In this document: positions 47,587-57,377 of the stretch, one piece after another
Position numbering within the stretch: position 1 is the first letter of the stretch
Layout of the letters: every line of letters begins with the position of its first letter
IMG/VR virus record: IMGVR_UViG_2563366730_000001
Coordinates: 1 to 57,693 of that record
Origin: a virus
Direction: 5' to 3' (one strand)
Length of the DNA stretch: 57,693 nucleotides
Program-made: the position numbers and the translations under genes
Notes under the pieces: model-generated
The model's database searches: none
Seen by the model: only the letters and a program-made list of their open reading frames with translations
What the model was told of the DNA's origin: nothing

Positions 47587-48342
47587 GTGATGAAACCACC
47601 AATTACAAGAATGGGCGGAAAGTCCAAATTAAGAAAAGAAATAATAAGTATGATACCAGATCACACTTGTTATGTTGAGTTATTCTTTGGAGCAGGATGG
47701 GTTTATTTTGGAAAAGAACCTAGTAAGGTTGAAGTTATAAATGATATTGATAAAGAACTAATAAACCTATTTAGAATGATAAAATATCATGCTCCAGAAA
47801 TAGAGAGAATGCTTGAGTACGAATTCTCAGGTAGAGATATTTTTGAGGAATATAAGAATATGACTATTGAAAATCTTACAGAGATACATAGGTCTGTAAG
47901 GTTTTTGTATTTAATAAGTCAATCCTTTGCAGGTAAGGGAAATCATTATGGATATGGTACAAATTCTAAACCTAAACCACAAATTTTTTACAAAGGTATT
48001 TTAAATGATATAAAAGAAAGGCTTAGAAATACTTATGTTGAAAATCTAAGCTTTGAAAAGACAATTGAAAAGTATGATAGAGATTATACTTTCTTCTTTG
48101 CAGACCCACCTTATTTTGAAACAGCAGGTTATGGTAACAGTTTTAAGGAAGAAGAACACTTAATATTAAGAGATAAACTTAAAAATATAAAGGGTAAATT
48201 CTTATTAACAATTAATGACCATGAGAAGGTTAGAGAATGGTATAAAGATTTTAATATAAAAGAAACAGAAGTAAGCTATTCTGTGGCTAAGGATAAGAAA
48301 GCAAGGGGGAAGTATAAAGAATTAATAATAACTAACTATTAA
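47587..48342 (+). CDS. D12-class N6-adenine DNA methyltransferase (Dam-like), orphan
   Basis: GGKSKL, ELFFGAGWV (motif I) and FADPPY (motif IV). Confidence 0.9.
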   Translation: MMKPPITRMGGKSKLRKEIISMIPDHTCYVELFFGAGWVYFGKEPSKVEVINDIDKELINLFRMIKYHAPEIERMLEYEFSGRDIFEEYKNMTIENLTEIHRSVRFLYLISQSFAGKGNHYGYGTNSKPKPQIFYKGILNDIKERLRNTYVENLSFEKTIEKYDRDYTFFFADPPYFETAGYGNSFKEEEHLILRDKLKNIKGKFLLTINDHEKVREWYKDFNIKETEVSYSVAKDKKARGKYKELIITNY

Positions 48343-48937: not shown

Positions 48938-49756
48938 ATGAAAATAGGATTAAGAGGTGGACATAGTGAGAATCATAAAGGTGCAAGTTCTGATATAACT
49001 GGGTATGATGAATGGTCTCAAATGCAAGAACTTTATAGAAATGTAAAAACTGTTTTAGAAGCTTATGGACATACAGTGATAGATTGTAATGCTTATAATT
49101 CAAGCTCTATAAATGATGAGTTAACTCAAGGAACAAGTAAAGCAACTAATAATGGAGTTGATATATTTATATCTCTTCATATGAATGCATTTAATGGAAG
49201 TGCACAAGGACACGAATGTTGGATATTTGATGAAAATAGAAATACTATAGCAAAAGATGTTGCTAAAAGAATAGCTAAAAACTTTGGTAATCATGGATTT
49301 AAACTAAGGCCAGAAAATAATGGCGTAAAAGGAATGAAACAATATAATAAAAACTATCATGATTTAAAGGCACCAATAGCGCCCGCTATTATAGTTGAAA
49401 CAATATTTTGTGATAGTTTAGAAGATAAGAAAATTTGGGCTCCTACTTCTTGGGATGAATTAGCTAGACTTGTTGTAAATGGAATAGATCCTAATATACC
49501 TTTAATGTTAAATGATTCTAAAAAATCAAAAGAACCTTCAGAGGGTTATGTAGTTACAGGATATTTAGATAAACAGCTTAAAAATTATGATGGGGCAGAG
49601 GTTGCAGGAGCTATAAGATATTACTTTAAAGATATAGATAGAGTGTATATTAGAAGTAATTCCATAGGTATGTGGTTAGAAACACAGTTATTGCCTATGG
49701 ATAAATGCAAGGAAATAAAAGAGTTATTAGGTAGTTGGGGTAAAATTAGATGTTAA
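48938..49756 (+). CDS. endolysin, N-acetylmuramoyl-L-alanine amidase (Amidase_3) with a C-terminal binding domain
   Basis: GLRGGHS, DIFISLHMNAF and AIIVETIFCDS motifs. Confidence 0.9.
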   Translation: MKIGLRGGHSENHKGASSDITGYDEWSQMQELYRNVKTVLEAYGHTVIDCNAYNSSSINDELTQGTSKATNNGVDIFISLHMNAFNGSAQGHECWIFDENRNTIAKDVAKRIAKNFGNHGFKLRPENNGVKGMKQYNKNYHDLKAPIAPAIIVETIFCDSLEDKKIWAPTSWDELARLVVNGIDPNIPLMLNDSKKSKEPSEGYVVTGYLDKQLKNYDGAEVAGAIRYYFKDIDRVYIRSNSIGMWLETQLLPMDKCKEIKELLGSWGKIRC

Positions 49757-49911: not shown

Positions 49912-50220
49912 ATGAAAAAGTTTTTTTCAAAAAAGAAAATCTTTGCGCTAGTTTTCGCTAGTATGATGTTATTCTCTGCTACGGCAGCATTTGCAGCACC
50001 TGTTTGTCCAGCATATGAGGATGGACATAGATTTTATAATCAGGTATATTTAAGGCAGGAAACTCAGACAGTGAGGCATTATCCAACTAGTGTTGGTCCA
50101 GGATGTGATGTTACTACAACATATAATGTTTATAAAAAAACTTGTGCTTGTGGATATTCAACTCCAACAGGAATTATAAGAGAAAAATTATATGAATCTC
50201 ACTCAGTGAATCATAATTAA
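49912..50220 (+). CDS. small secreted Cys-containing protein
   Basis: Signal peptide MKKFFSKKKIFALVFASMMLFSATAAFA/AP. Four Cys residues in the mature part. Has its own terminator. Confidence 0.7.
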   Translation: MKKFFSKKKIFALVFASMMLFSATAAFAAPVCPAYEDGHRFYNQVYLRQETQTVRHYPTSVGPGCDVTTTYNVYKKTCACGYSTPTGIIREKLYESHSVNHN

Positions 50221-50234
50221 TGGTATTATAAAAT

Positions 50235-50277
50235 AAAAAAGGTGGTCTAGGGAGTAATCCTTAGACCACCTTTTTTA
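50235..50277 (+). terminator. strong rho-independent terminator
   Basis: GGTGGTCTA ... TAGACCACC followed by TTTTTT. Confidence 0.85.
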
Positions 50278-50753
50278 TTTTATAATAAATATTGGAGTTA
50301 GGTGTAAATAATGTATAGATAATTACAATTCTCTTAACAATTAAGCTTGTTTATACCAGTAAAGATACAGAAATAGATGACACCAAATGGACTGAGAAGC
50401 TTTATAATAAAATAAAAAAGATTTTAATATAGATTATGAAATCATAATGCTAAATAAAAATACAGTGAAATATAATAATAGTGCTGATGGAATATATATG
50501 TGGTAATAGCAGTTATGGAATCAATATTGTTTTTTTATTTTAGCAAATATTTTACCAATATATATAAATCCAATAAGTACATCTGCTACAGTTATGTAGT
50601 TTGTATATGATATACTTAAGGGGAACCTACAATTAGACATAAATCTTTTATTAATCATATAACTTTAATGGTATTAAATGAATTAAGACCAGAAAACGAA
50701 AAAAGTCTAGAGAATAATATTCATATTAGACTTTCATAGTAATTTTGGTGTTA

Positions 50754-50783
50754 TAGACAAATTTACCATATTTAATGTAAAAT
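50754..50783 (+). promoter_or_regulatory. candidate promoter of the ATPase-methyltransferase operon
   Basis: TAGACA, an 18-nt spacer, then TAAAAT preceded by TG. AT-rich context, so the call is weak. Confidence 0.3.
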
Positions 50784-50787
50784 GAAA

Positions 50788-50817
50788 TAACCACTAAATT
50801 TTATATATAAGTGGTTA
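50788..50817. promoter_or_regulatory. 8-bp perfect inverted repeat (TAACCACT n14 AGTGGTTA), candidate operator
   Basis: Read directly. Lies between the candidate -10 element and the SD of 50846. Confidence 0.5.
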
Positions 50818-50845
50818 CTAAATAAATATATAGTGGGGGAAGTAT

Positions 50846-52423
50846 ATGATACATAGCATAGAAATAAAAGATTTTAGAGCACTTAAAAATGTGAATATAA
50901 ATTTAGGAAAATATATAACAGCTATTTCTGGAAGAAATGGATTGGGAAAGTCTACAATTTTAGCTTTATTGGGAAATACATGTGAGTTAAAGGTAAAAGA
51001 AGGAAAAACACTGTTTGATACGCAGTTTAGAACAGAGTTTAGTGAAATATTTAAAGCTTCTAAGGAATTTGATAAGAGTGGTTCCGATAAATTTAAGGTT
51101 AATTTTAATGATATAAGTAATCCTGATAAGATAAGTGACTGTAAAATAAGCAGAGTAACATGGCAAAAAGGTAAAAGATTTAGAGTTATACCAGAAACAA
51201 AAAATGAAAAGGAGAAAAATAGCAGAAAAAAAGAATTACCCTCTATATATCTTGGTTTATCAAGATTATATCCTATAGGCGAAGTCAGTGACGAGGAAAT
51301 AAATATTAAAAATATTAAATTAGAAGAAGAAGAAGAAATTTATTTTGTAGATAACTATATTGATATTTTAAATTTAAAAATGGATGAAGGAGAAAATCTT
51401 TCTTTTGAAATGATAGATATAGGACGAACTAGAAGAAAAAAGGGAATAGGAGTTTGTACATCAACATATAGTTCTATTACTAATTCAGCTGGACAAGATA
51501 ATATAGGCCAAATAATAATGTCTATATTATCATTTCGTAAATTATCAAAAAATAATAAAAATTATAATGGAGGATTGCTATTAATTGATGAAATAGATGC
51601 TGCTTTACATCCTATTGCTCAAATAAAATTAGTTAGATTTTTGTATAAGGCATGTAAAGAATTAAAATTACAAGTTGTATTTACTACACATAGCGTCTCC
51701 TTATTAAAATATTTATGTTCTAAGGTTTTACATAATAAAAATACTAATGTAAATAATTATGAAATACATTACTTAACTACAAATAATGGGCCTTTAAAAG
51801 TTTTGAGAAATACAGAATTTCCAATTATAGAAAATGACTTAATGCTTTCTCAACCAGGAAGCAATATAAAGAAAATAACCGTTTATTCCGAAGACTCTGA
51901 AGGAAGATGGTTTTTTCAAAAACTTACAGAAAAATATTCTTTATATTTAGATGTTATTAAAGTAAAATTATCATATGAATCATTACTTCAACTTAATAAA
52001 AATGATCCACTTTACTTTTCAAATGTACTTTTTGTGTTAGATGGAGATGTAAAATCAATTGAGGAATCAGGAAACTCTAAAGGAAATATAATTAAGTTAC
52101 CAGGTGAAGTTAGACCAGAGCAAGTCATATACGAGTTTCTATTAAATTTAAGTTCAGATTCTCAGCTTTGGGAAAATGGACTTAACATAGGTTTTTCAAA
52201 AGAGAGTATTGAAGAAAATGGACCATTATCACAAAAGTTTGATGGAAAAGATAGAGAAAGATACAAAAAATGGTTTAATGAAAATTTAGGAATAATAGAA
52301 TCATTAGATGTCTTTGGTTATTGGATTAAAGAAAATGAGGAAATGTATAATAATTTTATAGAGAGATTTAAAAGTTCTTATAATACAATAGCCAAAAGAA
52401 AATTATCTCCTATTATAAAGTAA
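50846..52423 (+). CDS. ABC-type ATPase fused to a Toprim-like C-terminal domain (OLD / PARIS AriA-AriB / AbiL-like)
   Basis: Walker A GRNGLGKST, signature-like NSAGQ, Walker B LLLIDEIDAALHP and H-loop FTTHS. The C-terminus has an acidic strand ITVYSEDSEGRWFF and a DxD motif VLFVLDGDV. SD GGGGGAAG. Confidence 0.7.
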   Translation: MIHSIEIKDFRALKNVNINLGKYITAISGRNGLGKSTILALLGNTCELKVKEGKTLFDTQFRTEFSEIFKASKEFDKSGSDKFKVNFNDISNPDKISDCKISRVTWQKGKRFRVIPETKNEKEKNSRKKELPSIYLGLSRLYPIGEVSDEEINIKNIKLEEEEEIYFVDNYIDILNLKMDEGENLSFEMIDIGRTRRKKGIGVCTSTYSSITNSAGQDNIGQIIMSILSFRKLSKNNKNYNGGLLLIDEIDAALHPIAQIKLVRFLYKACKELKLQVVFTTHSVSLLKYLCSKVLHNKNTNVNNYEIHYLTTNNGPLKVLRNTEFPIIENDLMLSQPGSNIKKITVYSEDSEGRWFFQKLTEKYSLYLDVIKVKLSYESLLQLNKNDPLYFSNVLFVLDGDVKSIEESGNSKGNIIKLPGEVRPEQVIYEFLLNLSSDSQLWENGLNIGFSKESIEENGPLSQKFDGKDRERYKKWFNENLGIIESLDVFGYWIKENEEMYNNFIERFKSSYNTIAKRKLSPIIK

Positions 52424-52469
52424 ATCTGTTATAGGATATAATTTAATTATATTATTTAGGAGGTGAAGT

Positions 52470-53351
52470 ATGGCTAAAGAAACATATTCACCGTTAAGAT
52501 ATCCAGGAAGTAAAAATAAATTAGCCGAATATATAAAAGAATTGATTTATTTAAAGAAACTGAATAATTCAACATATGTTGAGCCATTCTGTGGAGGAGC
52601 TTCAGTGGCTTTGTCACTATTAATAAATGGGCATGTATCTAATATAATAATCAATGACTATGATAAATCAATATATGCCTTTTGGTATTCTGTGATATAT
52701 CATAATAATGAGCTATGTGAACTGATTAAAAATACTAATATTACAATGGAAGAATGGCAAAAACAAAAAAAGATTCAATTTAATAAAGAAAAGGAAGATT
52801 TATTAAGCTTAGGATTCTCAACGTTATTTTTAAATAGAACTAATAGATCTGGAATATTAAAAGCAGGGGTAATTGGTGGAATAAATCAATTAGGAACATA
52901 TAAGCTTGATTGTAGGTTTAATAAAGATAAACTAATACAAAAGATAAAGCTAATTGGAACATATAGAGATAGGATTAAAGTTTACAATTTAGATACAGAA
53001 GAACTTATAAAGCAAGTAATTTCAAATTTAAATAAGAAATCATTTATTTTTTTTGATCCACCTTATTATAAAAAAGGCTCATGTTTATATACTAATTTTT
53101 ATAAACATGATAATCATATTTCCTTATCTAATAAAATTAAAAATATAAAATATCATTCCTGGATTGTTACATATGATAATATAGATAATATAAAAAGAAT
53201 GTATAAAGGATACTTTAAGGAATTATATAAATTAAATTATTCTGTAAAAGTTAAATATAAAGGAGAAGAAGTAATTATGTATAGTAATACTTTGAGTAAA
53301 GATTTAAAAAATAAAAATTTAACTATACATAAATATTGTGATAAAGTTTAA
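52470..53351 (+). CDS. D12-class N6-adenine DNA methyltransferase (second copy in the element)
   Basis: YPGSKNKL, EPFCGGASV (motif I), FLNRTNRSG and FFDPPYY (motif IV). SD AGGAGGTG. Confidence 0.85.
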   Translation: MAKETYSPLRYPGSKNKLAEYIKELIYLKKLNNSTYVEPFCGGASVALSLLINGHVSNIIINDYDKSIYAFWYSVIYHNNELCELIKNTNITMEEWQKQKKIQFNKEKEDLLSLGFSTLFLNRTNRSGILKAGVIGGINQLGTYKLDCRFNKDKLIQKIKLIGTYRDRIKVYNLDTEELIKQVISNLNKKSFIFFDPPYYKKGSCLYTNFYKHDNHISLSNKIKNIKYHSWIVTYDNIDNIKRMYKGYFKELYKLNYSVKVKYKGEEVIMYSNTLSKDLKNKNLTIHKYCDKV

Positions 53352-53378
53352 ATTATATAAATTAGATAGGGTGAGTTT

Positions 53379-53579
53379 ATGGGAGTGACGAATAGACTAA
53401 AAGAAATTAGAATGAAAGAATATATGATGGATCAAAATGAATTTGCAAAGTTTATTGGAGTTACAAATAAAGTTTATTGGAGTTGGGAGAATGATAAAAG
53501 TAGACCAACTTTAGAAAAAGCTTTAGAGATATCCAAAAAATTAAATATAAATGTTAATGAAATATGGCATCTAGAATAG
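53379..53579 (+). CDS. XRE-family HTH regulator (controller-like)
   Basis: MDQNEFAKFIGVTNKVYWSWENDKSRPTLEKALEISKKL. Starts 27 nt after the methyltransferase stop. Confidence 0.8.
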   Translation: MGVTNRLKEIRMKEYMMDQNEFAKFIGVTNKVYWSWENDKSRPTLEKALEISKKLNINVNEIWHLE

Positions 53580-53605
53580 ATGTCTATTTTTTTATTCTTT
53601 ATATT

Positions 53606-53636
53606 AAAAAATATTAGACTTAATCTAATATTTTAG
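53606..53636. terminator. bidirectional terminator-like hairpin
   Basis: AAAAATATTAGA cttaa TCTAATATTTTT. Confidence 0.65.
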
Positions 53637-53718: not shown

Positions 53719-53865
53719 GTGGCTAAAAAGGTGCCTATTAGTTTCAAAGAGACAACCAAAGATATAAAGCTATATACATTTATTATGTCTATAGAGGAAA
53801 GAGAAAGAAGTGCTTGGATTAAAGAACAGTTAAGAAAAGTTTTAGAGAAAGAAAATAATAATTAG
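53719..53865 (+). CDS. small ribbon-helix-helix-like protein (48 aa, GTG start)
   Basis: Hand-translated as (M)AKKVPISFKETTKDIKLYTFIMSIEERERSAWIKEQLRKVLEKENNN. The pattern is beta strand plus two helices. Confidence 0.4.
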   Translation: MAKKVPISFKETTKDIKLYTFIMSIEERERSAWIKEQLRKVLEKENNN

Positions 53866-53877
53866 GAGGTATATATA

Positions 53878-54120
53878 ATGTTAGGTTTATTAAAAGTTTT
53901 AGATTTAGGAAGAGAAGATCTGTATGTAGAGAAAGGGATATTAAAAAGAGAAGGTAATTGTAATTGGGAAGAGTGCTTTATTGTGGACAGTGGGGAAGGG
54001 GGATTCTTAGATTTAGAAGGAAATTGGATTGAGGACTACTTAGAAGATTGGAAGCCTAAAGGCATCTTAATAGATGCAGAAATGGGTATTAACAATATAA
54101 AAAATAGCCTAACCGATTAA
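53878..54120 (+). CDS. small acidic protein
   Basis: 80 aa with about 18 D/E versus 8 K/R residues. SD AGGAGG. Confidence 0.55.
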   Translation: MLGLLKVLDLGREDLYVEKGILKREGNCNWEECFIVDSGEGGFLDLEGNWIEDYLEDWKPKGILIDAEMGINNIKNSLTD

Positions 54121-54200
54121 AGGCTAGACTATCCCTAAGTTACTGCTGCGTTCACTACTGCGTACGCTTACTAGCAGTATATGCATATGCTATATAAAAG

Positions 54201-54228
54201 TTGACAGTATTTATATACATTTTACTAT
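54201..54228 (+). promoter_or_regulatory. candidate promoter reading antisense to the small peptide gene and into the virB2-like gene
   Basis: TTGACA, a 16-nt spacer, then TACTAT. Confidence 0.35.
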
Positions 54229-54245
54229 TATTAATGAAAATTTTA

Positions 54246-54326
54246 CTATCTTAATAAAGTTTCTGCGATTCTAACTCCAGTAGAAAAAGCCATTGTTATT
54301 AATGCTATAGCAAAAGTTATAGTCAT
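54246..54326 (-). CDS. 26-aa hydrophobic peptide (type I toxin-like)
   Basis: Hand-translated as MTITFAIALITMAFSTGVRIAETLLR. SD GGAGGTG lies 7 nt before the ATG. Confidence 0.4.
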   Translation of the reverse strand: MTITFAIALITMAFSTGVRIAETLLR

Positions 54327-54396
54327 ATAAAACACCTCCAGATGATAAAGTAGGTTTTCTTAATTCTATTATTAACTATTAGGGAGGGGATTATAC

Positions 54397-54807
54397 ATGG
54401 AAATAACGTTCTTTTATTATAATGAAAACTCTTTTAAAAACAGACTAATGAGAGAGAAGTATAAATGGGGAGAAGAGTTTGCTAAAGTAGTTATGGCAGA
54501 TAAGAAGCTTAAAGCTCTTACTACATTTGTTATGGCCAATACATTAATGTTAAAAAAGGCTTGTGCATCATCAGCAGAAATAGCAGCTGACTTAGGAAAA
54601 GTAGACTTAGCAGGAGGAACTTTACTGACAATATGTAGAAGGTTTGGTTATTGGGTTTGCCTAATAATGTGTATTGCAGAAATAATTAAAAGCTTATCTC
54701 AAGGGGATACAAAGGGTATAGGGAAAATTGTGGCCAAGTATACTATAGGTTTTGCTACCTTTTATTTCTTGCCATGGATATTTGATTTAATAAAGGCTAT
54801 GTTTTAA
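54397..54807 (+). CDS. polytopic membrane protein, TrbC/VirB2-pilin-like architecture
   Basis: Long leader, then a signal-like segment ending ...KKACA/SS, then two hydrophobic helices separated by a short polar loop (SQGDTKG). SD GGGAGGGG. Confidence 0.5.
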   Translation: MEITFFYYNENSFKNRLMREKYKWGEEFAKVVMADKKLKALTTFVMANTLMLKKACASSAEIAADLGKVDLAGGTLLTICRRFGYWVCLIMCIAEIIKSLSQGDTKGIGKIVAKYTIGFATFYFLPWIFDLIKAMF

Positions 54808-54822
54808 GGGGGAGGGGAGAAT

Positions 54823-55041
54823 ATGTCAGAGTATGTTTTAGGAATAATTAAGGATGTAGTTCTAGGGATTATAAAATGGATAGTGATAGGAGTAGTTAAC
54901 TGTAGCTACTGGATATTTCTACTCTGTGCTTTAGTATGCCTAATACTTTATATAGCAGGTCTTAAGAAAGCTGGTAAATATGTACCTATAAGTTTTATCG
55001 CCTATCTTTTCTTACAAGCAATCAAAGGAGCTATTATGTAA
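54823..55041 (+). CDS. small 2-3 TM membrane protein (VirB3-like position)
   Basis: 72 aa, almost entirely hydrophobic. Its stop overlaps the start of the ATPase gene (TAATG). Confidence 0.45.
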   Translation: MSEYVLGIIKDVVLGIIKWIVIGVVNCSYWIFLLCALVCLILYIAGLKKAGKYVPISFIAYLFLQAIKGAIM

Positions 55042-57377
55042 TGTTAGAGAAATTTAAAAAGAAAGAATTTATACCATGGGATAAGTACTTTAAACTTATT
55101 AAACCTAATTATATTTATCTTAAAATAATACCTCATAAATCTATAAGAAATTACAATTCTAGTAATATAGCAAAGGCTATTACACATACCTTTAGATCCA
55201 TAAACAAGAGAATAAAAATTGAGCAAAAAAAGTTGTGGTTTGAGTTAAACTTTAAAATTAGCTATGTAATAGATATAGAGAGTGATAATGCTAGTTTCTA
55301 TTTTATAGTTCCTGAAGTATTTCAAAATATTTTACTAGAGAAAATAAGTGAGATATGGACCAAAGCTACAATAGAAAGGGTGGAATGTATCAATCCTTTT
55401 GCTTTTGACTCTACTAAGTATCAACTAGGATATAAGAAAGAAGATGCTTTAAGCTTACAAGTGGATAAAAAGAGCAATGAACCTTTAAATTCTATCCTAA
55501 ATGTAATAGAGATAATGAAGGATGAAGATAGGGTCACTATAATATATAACTTTCTTCCAAGAACACAATTTGGATGGCTTAAGCAGTACCAGGATACAAT
55601 GCAGAAACTAAAGGAGCATAAACCTATAGAAAAAGAAAAAATGAGCTTCTCTTATATAAGTAAGGGTTTATTGTCCTATGTAGTGGATTTGCTTGATACA
55701 GTTATGGAAGTCTTTAATGATTTTACAGGAGGTACTAAGCAGAAAGAGAACCAACAGAGCTTTGCAGAAGCTTTAGCAACTGCATTGGAACAGGAGAAGG
55801 AATTAAGTAATGATACTAAGAAGAAAAAGGACATTAGGGTATTAGACACTCAAATAGTAGTGGTTAGCAGCAGTAAGGATAAAACTAGAGAGGATAATAA
55901 TGCTCTATCGGTTTGCCAAAGTTATAGAGTTTTAGACGAGGACAATGAACTAAACTATAAAAAAATTACTTCTAATATAAGTACTAAAGAATATAAGTTT
56001 AAAAATGTAGATGTTAATACAATTTCTACAGATGAAGCACAGAACTTTATACAGATACCAGGGAGACAGCTTTTAAGAGATCATAGGATAAAACATATCA
56101 ATATAGAAGAAACTCAAGTTCCAGATAAATTACAGGAAGGTTATTTTTCTTTAGGAGAAGTTAAATATAAAGGAAGTGTTTCTAACTCTTATCTAGAAAA
56201 TGAATATAATATAGGTAATTTACCCTTAGTCCTTATAGGGAGCCAAGGAAGTGGTAAAACAACCTATATGAAGAATATAGCTAGGTATTGCAGCAACAAC
56301 GGGGAAGGTGTATTCCTAATAGACTTCATTAAAAATTGTGAGTTAAGTAATGATATAGCTAAAGTTATACCTAAGGATAAACTAATAGTCTTAAACCTAG
56401 CAGAGGAGAAAGACATTCAAGGATTAGGATTTAATGAGATAAAAATCACAGATGACATGACTTCCTATAAAAAGATGATGTTAGCCAACTTGCAGAGCCA
56501 ACAAGTTATGGCTCTAGTAGATAGTATAAGTGTAGGAGATCCTTTGTCCAGCAGAATGAGAAGATTCTTAAGTGCTGCTTGTAATGTAGTTTTTGTACAA
56601 GGTCACAGCAGTATAAGAAATGTTATAGAGTGCTTAGAAAATCATAATAAGAGAAAGAAATATATAGAATCCCTACCTAAATTACTGACCAATTTATTAG
56701 AGGATGATATAGATACTTTAAGCGAATTAAATGAATGGTCCAAAGCAACTAAAAATAATCCACCTGAAATTATAGGGACTAAAGAATCCAAAATAGAGCA
56801 CATACTAGATAGAATTTCATTACTAAGAGAGGACTTTAAACTTAAGTATATGTATAATAAAAACTGTAGTAATAATATAGATTTAGTTGAATGCATGGAG
56901 CAGGGAAAAGTAGTCCTAATCCAGATGAAAGAATCTGATTTTCCAACTAAAATGATTAAGAATATCCTGGTTACTTATTGGATAAGTAAGATATGGTTAA
57001 CTAGTCAATTAAGGGGTAGTTTAAAAGACAGGCCTTTAAGATGCAATGTAATTGCAGATGAAATATTCCAAGCCCCCACATGCATGAAAACATTAGAATA
57101 TATACTTCCACAGAGTAGAAAGTTTGGTTGTAAATTTATTTTCAGCACTCAATACATTAAACAATTAGAAAGTATATTTAATACATTAGAAGCTAGTGGA
57201 TCTAGTTATATGCTGTTAAAAGGTTCTATGGAAGATGACTTTAATCACTTCAAATCTAAGTTGGAGAACTTTGAATTTGAGGACCTTAGGGACATGCAAC
57301 AATTTAGCAGTCTAAATCTTATATACTATTCTAGCGGATATGCCAGTTTTATAAGTAAGCTTCCTAGGCCTGTTTAA
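55041..57377 (+). CDS. VirB4/HerA/FtsK-superfamily P-loop ATPase (778 aa)
   Basis: Mid-protein Walker A IGSQGSGKTT, Walker B CNVIADEIF, and the SRKFGCKFIFSTQ motif typical of the HerA/VirB4 clade. No TM segment. Confidence 0.7.
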   Translation: MLEKFKKKEFIPWDKYFKLIKPNYIYLKIIPHKSIRNYNSSNIAKAITHTFRSINKRIKIEQKKLWFELNFKISYVIDIESDNASFYFIVPEVFQNILLEKISEIWTKATIERVECINPFAFDSTKYQLGYKKEDALSLQVDKKSNEPLNSILNVIEIMKDEDRVTIIYNFLPRTQFGWLKQYQDTMQKLKEHKPIEKEKMSFSYISKGLLSYVVDLLDTVMEVFNDFTGGTKQKENQQSFAEALATALEQEKELSNDTKKKKDIRVLDTQIVVVSSSKDKTREDNNALSVCQSYRVLDEDNELNYKKITSNISTKEYKFKNVDVNTISTDEAQNFIQIPGRQLLRDHRIKHINIEETQVPDKLQEGYFSLGEVKYKGSVSNSYLENEYNIGNLPLVLIGSQGSGKTTYMKNIARYCSNNGEGVFLIDFIKNCELSNDIAKVIPKDKLIVLNLAEEKDIQGLGFNEIKITDDMTSYKKMMLANLQSQQVMALVDSISVGDPLSSRMRRFLSAACNVVFVQGHSSIRNVIECLENHNKRKKYIESLPKLLTNLLEDDIDTLSELNEWSKATKNNPPEIIGTKESKIEHILDRISLLREDFKLKYMYNKNCSNNIDLVECMEQGKVVLIQMKESDFPTKMIKNILVTYWISKIWLTSQLRGSLKDRPLRCNVIADEIFQAPTCMKTLEYILPQSRKFGCKFIFSTQYIKQLESIFNTLEASGSSYMLLKGSMEDDFNHFKSKLENFEFEDLRDMQQFSSLNLIYYSSGYASFISKLPRPV

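Follow-up and report, generated by a model that had tools for sequence, protein, structure and literature searches.

The IMG/VR record IMGVR_UViG_2563366730_000001 comprises 57,693 nucleotides of viral DNA (positions 1–57,693; this whole stretch is referred to as the window) and represents a prophage or phage-like element of Clostridium hydrogeniformans. Within it lie three co-directional genes, the first two of which couple an ATPase–Toprim-like protein of the OLD family to a DNA adenine methylase. Gene 1 (50846–52423, + strand) is an open reading frame of 525 aa, gene 2 (52470–53351, +) encodes a 293-aa D12-class N6-adenine DNA methyltransferase of the PD-Lambda-5_B family, and gene 3 (53379–53579, +) encodes a 66-aa XRE/HTH_3 protein. 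The genes are separated by 46 nt and 27 nt, respectively, and purine-rich Shine–Dalgarno (SD) sequences (GGGGGA, AGGAGGTGA, and GGGTGAG) lie in front of the three start codons. This layout, including the spacers and the strong SDs, agrees with a first-pass annotation of the same DNA, and all motifs quoted there were found in the two proteins: GRNGLGKST (Walker A), NSAGQ (signature), LLLIDEIDAALHP (Walker B/D-loop), and FTTHS (H-loop) as well as ITVYSEDSEGRWFF and VLFVLDGDV in gene 1, and EPFCGGASV and FFDPPYY in gene 2.

The N-terminal part of gene 1 (50846–51847, +) encodes an ATP-binding cassette (ABC) ATPase domain of the OLD/AAA_15 type with a β-rich, Arg-rich insert at residues ~45–210, and matches AAA_15 (1e-18) and AAA_21 (1e-13) in Pfam. 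The AlphaFold model of the protein has a predicted local distance difference test score (pLDDT) of 83.6 and, at full length, retrieves the Retron-Eco8 OLD effector (2.6e-11) and the Thermus scotoductus OLD protein (6p74; 1e-10) in Foldseek, followed by GajA and PtuA. The Walker A lysine K35 is present in 129/129 aligned ATPases, while R140, S214, G216, D248, E249, and H282 are invariant in all 131 methylase-linked homologs. Gene 1 falls into phrog_3940, a family of unknown function (4.7e-136 over the full length), and its own family counts 695 representatives at E ≤ 1e-30, with clusters built at 50% identity.

The C-terminal part (51848–52423, +) encodes a Toprim-like nuclease domain followed by a helical tail. 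Its acidic residues E349, D350, D399, and D401 are likewise invariant (131/131 methylase-linked homologs). The C-terminal 191 residues are modelled at pLDDT 93 as a β-α-β-α-β-β unit and a subsequent helical bundle, in which E349/D350 close strand 1 and D399-G-D401 follows strand 3, corresponding to the canonical Toprim layout. Searches with the isolated domain gave negative or weak results. Foldseek returned nothing at E ≤ 0.001, the C-terminal regions of OLD proteins appearing at E = 0.2–0.4 with a template-modelling (TM) score of about 0.35; a profile search of PDB sequences gave no match; and among 56 C-terminal domains of the family, Pfam recognized a single one, as DUF4435 at 0.012. Consequently, the Toprim call rests on the motifs, the topology, and the PADLOC profiles. 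Taken alone, nine of the 56 family domains match HEC-04 (best 1.6e-7), two match ATPase-Toprim_I-B (2.3e-5), and one matches AriB (0.016), and these matches of relatives led us to accept the Toprim assignment with a caveat. The domain of one relative (L045) aligns with HEC-04 profile positions 313–407, a span that should include the E319/D375/D377 metal site if profile and protein numbering roughly agree. Mutation of this metal site abolishes HEC-04 defence, which requires both the Walker A and the Toprim E/D/D residues (bioRxiv 10.1101/2024.01.29.577857). By analogy, the gene 1 product is a credible nuclease. The OLD-type ABC-ATPase–Toprim fusion of the first-pass annotation is therefore supported, the caveat on its C-terminal fold being that the comparison with GajA and Old succeeds for the full-length model but is not significant for the C-terminal domain alone.

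Gene 2 is confirmed as a D12 adenine methylase (MethyltransfD12, 4e-20). The profile searches bore out the families initially named for the genes and added one membership that had been missed: PADLOC places gene 2 in PD-Lambda-5_B (PDLC04018; 2.4e-119, profile positions 3–280 of 291). It also matches the Type II methylase model MTase_II (8e-100), its closest solved structure is 7m6b (6.5e-34), and it is not a canonical Dam enzyme, scoring 72 bits against TIGR00571 versus a cut-off of 115. The DPPY motif and the S-adenosyl methionine (SAM)-binding motif are invariant in 161/161 family members, as are E38, G42, N122, R123, G136, G137, and R149. The presumed DNA-contact residues N122, R123, G136, G137, Q140, and R149 are invariant or nearly so with either of the two partner types described below. 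A single methylation specificity across the methylase family is plausible from this conservation, and exchange of the effector would then be compatible with restriction–modification (RM) logic. A second adenine methylase is encoded in the window directly upstream of the holins (47587–48342, +). It is a true member of the Dam family (TIGR00571, 121 bits, above the cut-off) with 26% identity to gene 2, and the phage therefore holds one solitary Dam-like and one effector-linked methylase.

The linkage of the two genes was followed in an ATPase-based survey, for which one genome per species was scanned and which returned 80 loci. These derive from Bacillota, Fusobacteriota, Synergistota, Actinomycetota, Melainabacteria, Elusimicrobiota, Campylobacterota, Pseudomonadota, Planctomycetota, Chloroflexota, Bacteroidota, and other phyla. 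A gene 2 homolog lies on the same strand as the ATPase gene in 72 of the 80 loci and is directly adjacent in 69 of them; among the 72, the ATPase comes first in 48 and the methylase in 24. Of the remaining eight loci, all are truncated at a contig end except for a decayed one that retains a remnant of the methylase. Every assessable gene 1 homolog (134 loci from more than 10 phyla, including phages and plasmids) adjoins a PD-Lambda-5_B-type methylase. Co-occurrence in other genomes, which the first-pass annotation had raised as a check on its proposal, thus extends to all 134. The linkage persists in remote relatives of 26–30% identity from Acinetobacter, Nicoliella, and plasmids of Bacillus toyonensis (in divergent orientation), Staphylococcus hominis, and Psychrobacter. 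An Arsenophonus plasmid homolog (24.5% identity) without a methylase marks the edge of the linked clade. The coupling of ATPase and methylase is far beyond chance and, wherever a locus could be assessed, appears to be obligate.

Among 136 loci, the pair has no conserved third component. CI-like HTH genes (40/136) and integrases (26/136) merely reflect the prophage context, the pair occupying prophage lysogeny or moron slots, a setting in keeping with a role in defence. Some loci deserve a separate mention. In the decayed copies L033, L076, and L078, loss seems to affect the two genes jointly: L033 has a truncated ATPase gene and a methylase gene interrupted by an insertion of 2.4 kb, and L076 retains a truncated ATPase and a methylase remnant only. 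On the Psychrobacter plasmid pVan23-1 (L171, 2965–5624), the methylase is preceded by two proteins, one ATP-binding and 404 aa long, the other of 156 aa, a split effector that may resemble the AriA/AriB split of PARIS or result from a frameshift. In C. butyricum pCFSA3989 (L081, 10282–13596), the gene for a different, 251-aa methylase lies ~1.8 kb 3′ of the pair, with that for a large AAA ATPase behind it; the two may form another methylase–ATPase unit.

The reciprocal, methylase-based survey covered 80 IMG/VR loci and revealed a second partner. An ATPase–Toprim gene is adjacent to the methylase in 56 of them, and in the other 24 the same upstream slot holds a gene of 430–580 aa. All ten of these genes that were tested are PD-Lambda-5_A (E 1e-29 to 1e-282), the alignment of which shows the ParB-like motifs NPR and EGNRR. 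Between the ATPase–Toprim protein and PD-Lambda-5_A, hhalign detects no homology (probability 0.5%), and no shared docking domain was found. Pooled over 160 loci, the partner is an ATPase–Toprim protein in 134, PD-Lambda-5_A in 24, and neither in two. Mean identity amounts to 46% among methylases with an ATPase partner, 53% among those with PD-Lambda-5_A, and 47% between the groups (maximum 72%), and the nearest methylase neighbour shares the partner type in 144 of 159 cases. At the sequence level, the methylases do not separate by partner type. A prophage slot flanked by a CI-like repressor and ImmA/integrase holds PD-lambda-5 proper in C. perfringens ATCC 13124; its equivalent in prophages of C. 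difficile, flanked likewise, holds the ATPase version. Further, at least nine loci identified by tblastn, four of them confirmed by the PADLOC profile, combine the ATPase and methylase genes with one that resembles PD-Lambda-5_A. Such three-gene loci occur in several orders (L129, 1354–5142; L037, 319–4175; L043; L028; L126/L127; L058).

The effector is also exchanged within the ATPase version itself. Methylase-linked ATPases fall into about nine subfamilies with 22–33% identity between them, and methylases beside different subfamilies can be 81–99% identical. This is most evident in two IMG/VR loci, L093 (3083–4934) and L094, whose DNA is 81% identical upstream and 93% identical over the methylase gene. 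Their methylases are 99% identical, while the ATPase–Toprim genes lack DNA homology and their products share 24% identity; from this comparison, the two loci represent a clean cassette replacement of the effector gene. ATPase and methylase divergences are nevertheless correlated (Mantel r = 0.53, p ≤ 0.001), and the ATPase evolves faster, with a mean identity of 34% versus 46% for the methylase.

Gene 3 matches HTH_3 in Pfam (4e-11) and, weakly, the ‘Control_protein’ model of PADLOC (0.008), and is probably co-transcribed with genes 1 and 2 in this phage. Controller (C) proteins are usually encoded upstream; gene 3 instead lies downstream and is the last gene of the operon. The first-pass annotation had counted the XRE regulator as part of the system, which does not hold beyond the window: among more than 160 other loci fetched, an XRE gene adjoins the pair in none, and four contain a non-adjacent XRE homolog inside the fetched flank. 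An integral role of the XRE protein was rejected on the basis of this survey, and gene 3 is a local regulatory add-on of this phage and not a conserved component.

Upstream of gene 1, promoter-like hexamers (TAGACA-18-TAAAAT, 50754–50783, +) match in 10 of 12 positions. The initially annotated promoter element is thus present but does not exceed chance, since the region, which is AT-rich, holds 31 such sites compared with 32.4 expected from shuffled sequence; it is a candidate only. The 8-bp perfect inverted repeat of that annotation, TAACCACT-N14-AGTGGTTA (50788–50817, +), is confirmed; it lies downstream of the putative −10 box and ahead of the SD. The repeat occurs once in the window, folds with −7.8 kcal/mol (z = −2.8), and may serve as an operator or as a hairpin in the 5′ untranslated region. 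A near-identical repeat exists in L003 (5715–5743, at −65), whose ATPase is 49% identical to gene 1 and which has no XRE gene. Both copies lie ~30–60 nt 5′ of the ATPase start and have the core ACCACT ... AGTGGT in common. A function as family-wide operator was rejected: the repeat was found in the window and L003 only, and other close relatives have different hairpins. At the distal end, a terminator-like hairpin (53566–53584) followed by a U-run (feature 53566–53594, +) overlaps the gene 3 stop (−9.2 kcal/mol, z = −3.6). It is a better terminator candidate than the hairpin annotated originally, which exists as an 11-bp stem (53608–53634, +; −7.8 kcal/mol) but is weak, consists almost entirely of A/T pairs, and is not called by the terminator scan. 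In the intergenic regions, Rfam yielded only a spurious microRNA match, located on the upstream terminator.

The surrounding DNA is that of a phage. The window encodes an integrase (1439–2596), tail-fibre genes, holins, and an Amidase_3 endolysin (48938–49756), and the position of the module behind the lysis cassette of a prophage is as initially described; a C. butyricum prophage is arranged alike. The G+C content of the module (0.21–0.27) is lower than that of the flanking phage genes (0.29–0.33), which suggests acquisition of the pair. A megablast search of GenBank phages with the locus DNA gave no match. Between endolysin and module, a protein of 102 aa is encoded (49912–50220, +) that contains several Cys, begins with a stretch resembling a signal peptide, and matches no Pfam or PHROG family. 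A 26-bp perfect terminator stem lies 3′ of its gene, and a very strong terminator (50233–50278; −37 kcal/mol) ends the gene upstream of the module. The genes downstream (53719–57377, +) are phage-associated. Their products comprise two small membrane proteins, one protein of 48 aa (phrog_18533), and a P-loop protein of 778 aa (phrog_5156) that weakly matches the DNA-binding domain of TrwB/coupling proteins. Possibly, the element is a phage-plasmid or contains a module for DNA translocation.

On this sequence evidence, genes 1 and 2 very probably constitute a mobile two-gene immunity module and an effector-swapped relative of PD-lambda-5, and the active sites of both the ATPase–Toprim protein and the methylase are under strict selection. 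Because a PD-Lambda-5_B methylase is combined with a non-homologous effector, the locus represents a variant of a named and experimentally validated system. PD-lambda-5 gives broad phage protection (Vassallo et al, 2022). It could be cloned only in an mrr-deleted host (PMC9519451), implying methylation of the chromosome and hence an active PD-lambda-5 methylase in vivo. The invariant methylase active site, this mrr phenotype, and the lack of any intact effector without a methylase lead us to favour methylation-licensed, RM-like immunity as the mode of action, a mechanism that we infer and assign a probability of about 0.45. In this mechanism, the methylase would mark lysogen and prophage DNA at a motif seemingly fixed across the family, and the ATP-gated Toprim protein would stay silent on marked DNA. 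Unmarked foreign DNA would fire the Toprim protein, either through its own reading of the unmethylated site or with the methylase as reader, and the fired protein would cut DNA; its target might also be tRNA, which P2 Old and AriB cleave. More tentatively, and in our view rather doubtfully, the PD-Lambda-5_B methylase could be the anchor, possibly the DNA-reading subunit, of a modular RM-like class with interchangeable, non-homologous effectors. An OLD-type ATPase–Toprim protein, ParB/HEPN, or both would then plug into the methylase, and the ATPase–Toprim version would be the first ABC-ATPase/Toprim restriction enzyme.

Several observations weigh against methylation licensing. PD-lambda-5 survived a screen that discarded RM-like clones, and its protection is strongest for T-even phages with their heavily modified DNA. 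IbfA/HEC-04, PARIS, P2 Old, and retron Eco8, the nearest ATPase–Toprim proteins that have been characterised, serve as sensors for abortive infection that respond to phage proteins, and several of these relatives cleave tRNA, not unmethylated DNA. Moreover, exchange of effectors beside near-identical methylases is easier to explain if the effector itself does not read the motif. Much of this would fit a PARIS-like guard, in which the ATPase–Toprim protein is a suicide effector restrained by the methylase or watching it. DNA-mimic anti-restriction proteins, SAM depletion, or a phage trigger sensed by the variable ATPase inserts would release the Toprim nuclease to attack tRNA or host DNA, aborting the infection. 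The repeated embedding of OLD-ABC/Toprim proteins in the methylation-based Hma and BREX systems, as proposed backup effectors, points the same way, and so does the HEPN-bearing protein in the same slot, HEPN proteins typically being RNases. Cassette-like turnover beside a constant methylase would suit an arms-race sensor, and the three-gene loci are consistent with a guard as well. The authors of PD-lambda-5 read that system as a compacted combination of RM and abortive infection (RM+Abi). However, a mere bait or scaffold would not need methylase catalytic residues that are invariant in every family member. The ATPase–Toprim protein nearly always occurs with the methylase alone, so that there is no complete primary restriction system to guard, and standalone relatives, among them IbfA and the homolog on the Arsenophonus plasmid, do without a methylase. 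We regard a guard as the main rival, somewhat less probable than methylation licensing; the first-pass annotation had already named licensing and a PARIS-like sensor as its two alternatives.

Three further explanations carry less weight. Because the pair always resides on mobile elements (prophages, plasmids, and integrase loci), because an intact ATPase without methylase was never seen, and because decayed L033 and L076 lost both genes together, the module might be selfish. It would then mainly stabilise its prophage or plasmid by post-segregational killing, as Type II RM systems do, or mainly protect phage DNA in new hosts, with defence secondary or absent. This is improbable as the main function, given that the sister system PD-lambda-5 protects broadly against phages, that HEC-04/IbfA are defence genes, and that fast effector turnover is typical of immunity genes; addiction also overlaps with methylation-licensed immunity and does not exclude it. 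Alternatively, a conserved phage methylase could flank a hotspot that receives independent single-gene defences (IbfA-like or ParB/HEPN), as comparable prophage hotspots are known in P2 and as the replacement of the effector gene alone between conserved flanks in L093/L094 might suggest. We regard such coincidence as very improbable, since the methylase accompanies the ATPase in every assessable locus, over more than 10 phyla and in surroundings that are not conserved, with either gene first and even in divergent orientation; since only two effector families hold the slot in 160 loci; and since the divergences of the two proteins are correlated. A three-gene Type II system, with the XRE protein as C-protein timing nuclease versus methylase through the inverted repeat, is equally hard to credit. 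The size of gene 3, its position 27 nt after the methylase gene, the weak ‘Control_protein’ match, and the overlap of the repeat with the putative promoter speak for it, but are outweighed by the absence of an adjacent XRE gene elsewhere, by the repeat without XRE gene in L003, and by the terminal position of gene 3. Methylation-licensed immunity remains our preferred reading of the module.

The module links methylation-based self-marking with OLD/PARIS-type ATPase–Toprim effectors. At 50% identity, the ATPase family comprises ~700 clusters, and its members are frequent in Clostridium, C. difficile, Fusobacterium, and gut Firmicutes prophages. If licensing by methylation proves true, RM logic would operate on a nuclease fold that is absent from known restriction enzymes. 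Moreover, one methylase with two unrelated effectors, apparently both in at least nine loci, provides a natural experiment on how a methylase licenses or restrains its effector. It thereby offers a handle on the mechanism of PD-lambda-5 and adds a fifth genomic context to the classification of OLD nucleases. The system is also relevant for phage therapy and for the genetic tractability of clostridia.

PD-lambda-5 is the closest known system. It has the methylase family in common with the module, is likewise a two-gene operon with an effector of about 430–580 aa (525 aa here), and occupies the same prophage slots as the ATPase version. The difference lies in the effector, PD-Lambda-5_A being annotated as ParB/HEPN by Vassallo et al (2022, Nat Microbiol) and replaced here by an ABC-ATPase–Toprim fusion. 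The window contains no PD-Lambda-5_A homolog, and the corresponding model is not among the 25 best PADLOC matches of gene 1; detection tools would therefore call no system. In PADLOC 2.0, gene 2 receives the PD-Lambda-5_B label and gene 1 a weak HEC-04 label, with no system called. In the searchable literature, we found no description of an ATPase–Toprim and D12 methylase pair.

Type II and Type III RM systems resemble the module in the tight linkage of an adenine methylase to a nuclease gene on mobile DNA, and Type III in particular offers the analogy of an ATPase-nuclease subunit that depends on the methylase. They differ in that the module lacks superfamily 2 (SF2) helicase motifs, and profile scans found no known restriction-endonuclease family among its proteins. 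To our knowledge, no described restriction enzyme has an ABC ATPase or a Toprim nuclease fold.

HEC-04, described in the preprint of Payne et al (2024), and IbfA from IncI1 plasmids are both defence genes and share with gene 1 the size (about 520 aa) and the fused ABC-ATPase–TOPRIM architecture. HEC-04 is the best PADLOC match of gene 1 (4e-25, 86 bits, profile positions 27–283 of 494); for gene 1 itself, the similarity is confined to the ATPase part (residues 2–293), and the relationship, as judged from these profiles, is one of remote homology only. While HEC-04/IbfA act alone or embedded in Hma, without an obligate methylase, gene 1 is always methylase-linked. Gabija is more distant, since GajA matches gene 1 weakly (1.3e-15) and through ATPase motifs only, and a gene for the UvrD-like helicase GajB is missing here. 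The AriA models of PARIS also match gene 1 through the ATPase motifs only (4.5e-22), and the C-terminal domain of gene 1 matches nothing, the AriB and DUF4435 matches of its relatives (one of 56 each) being weak. In the wider OLD family (P2 Old/Thermus OLD, GajA, retron Eco8, and PARIS), an N-terminal ABC ATPase precedes a C-terminal Toprim domain, as in gene 1. The published OLD classes comprise solitary proteins (class 1), those with a UvrD-like helicase (class 2), retrons (class 3), and PARIS (class 4), but no methylase-linked class. At our locus, there is no helicase, reverse transcriptase, retron non-coding RNA, or separate AriB gene. The D12 methylase neighbour, found here in 134/134 loci, falls outside these contexts, and the module is thus a new genomic context for OLD nucleases.

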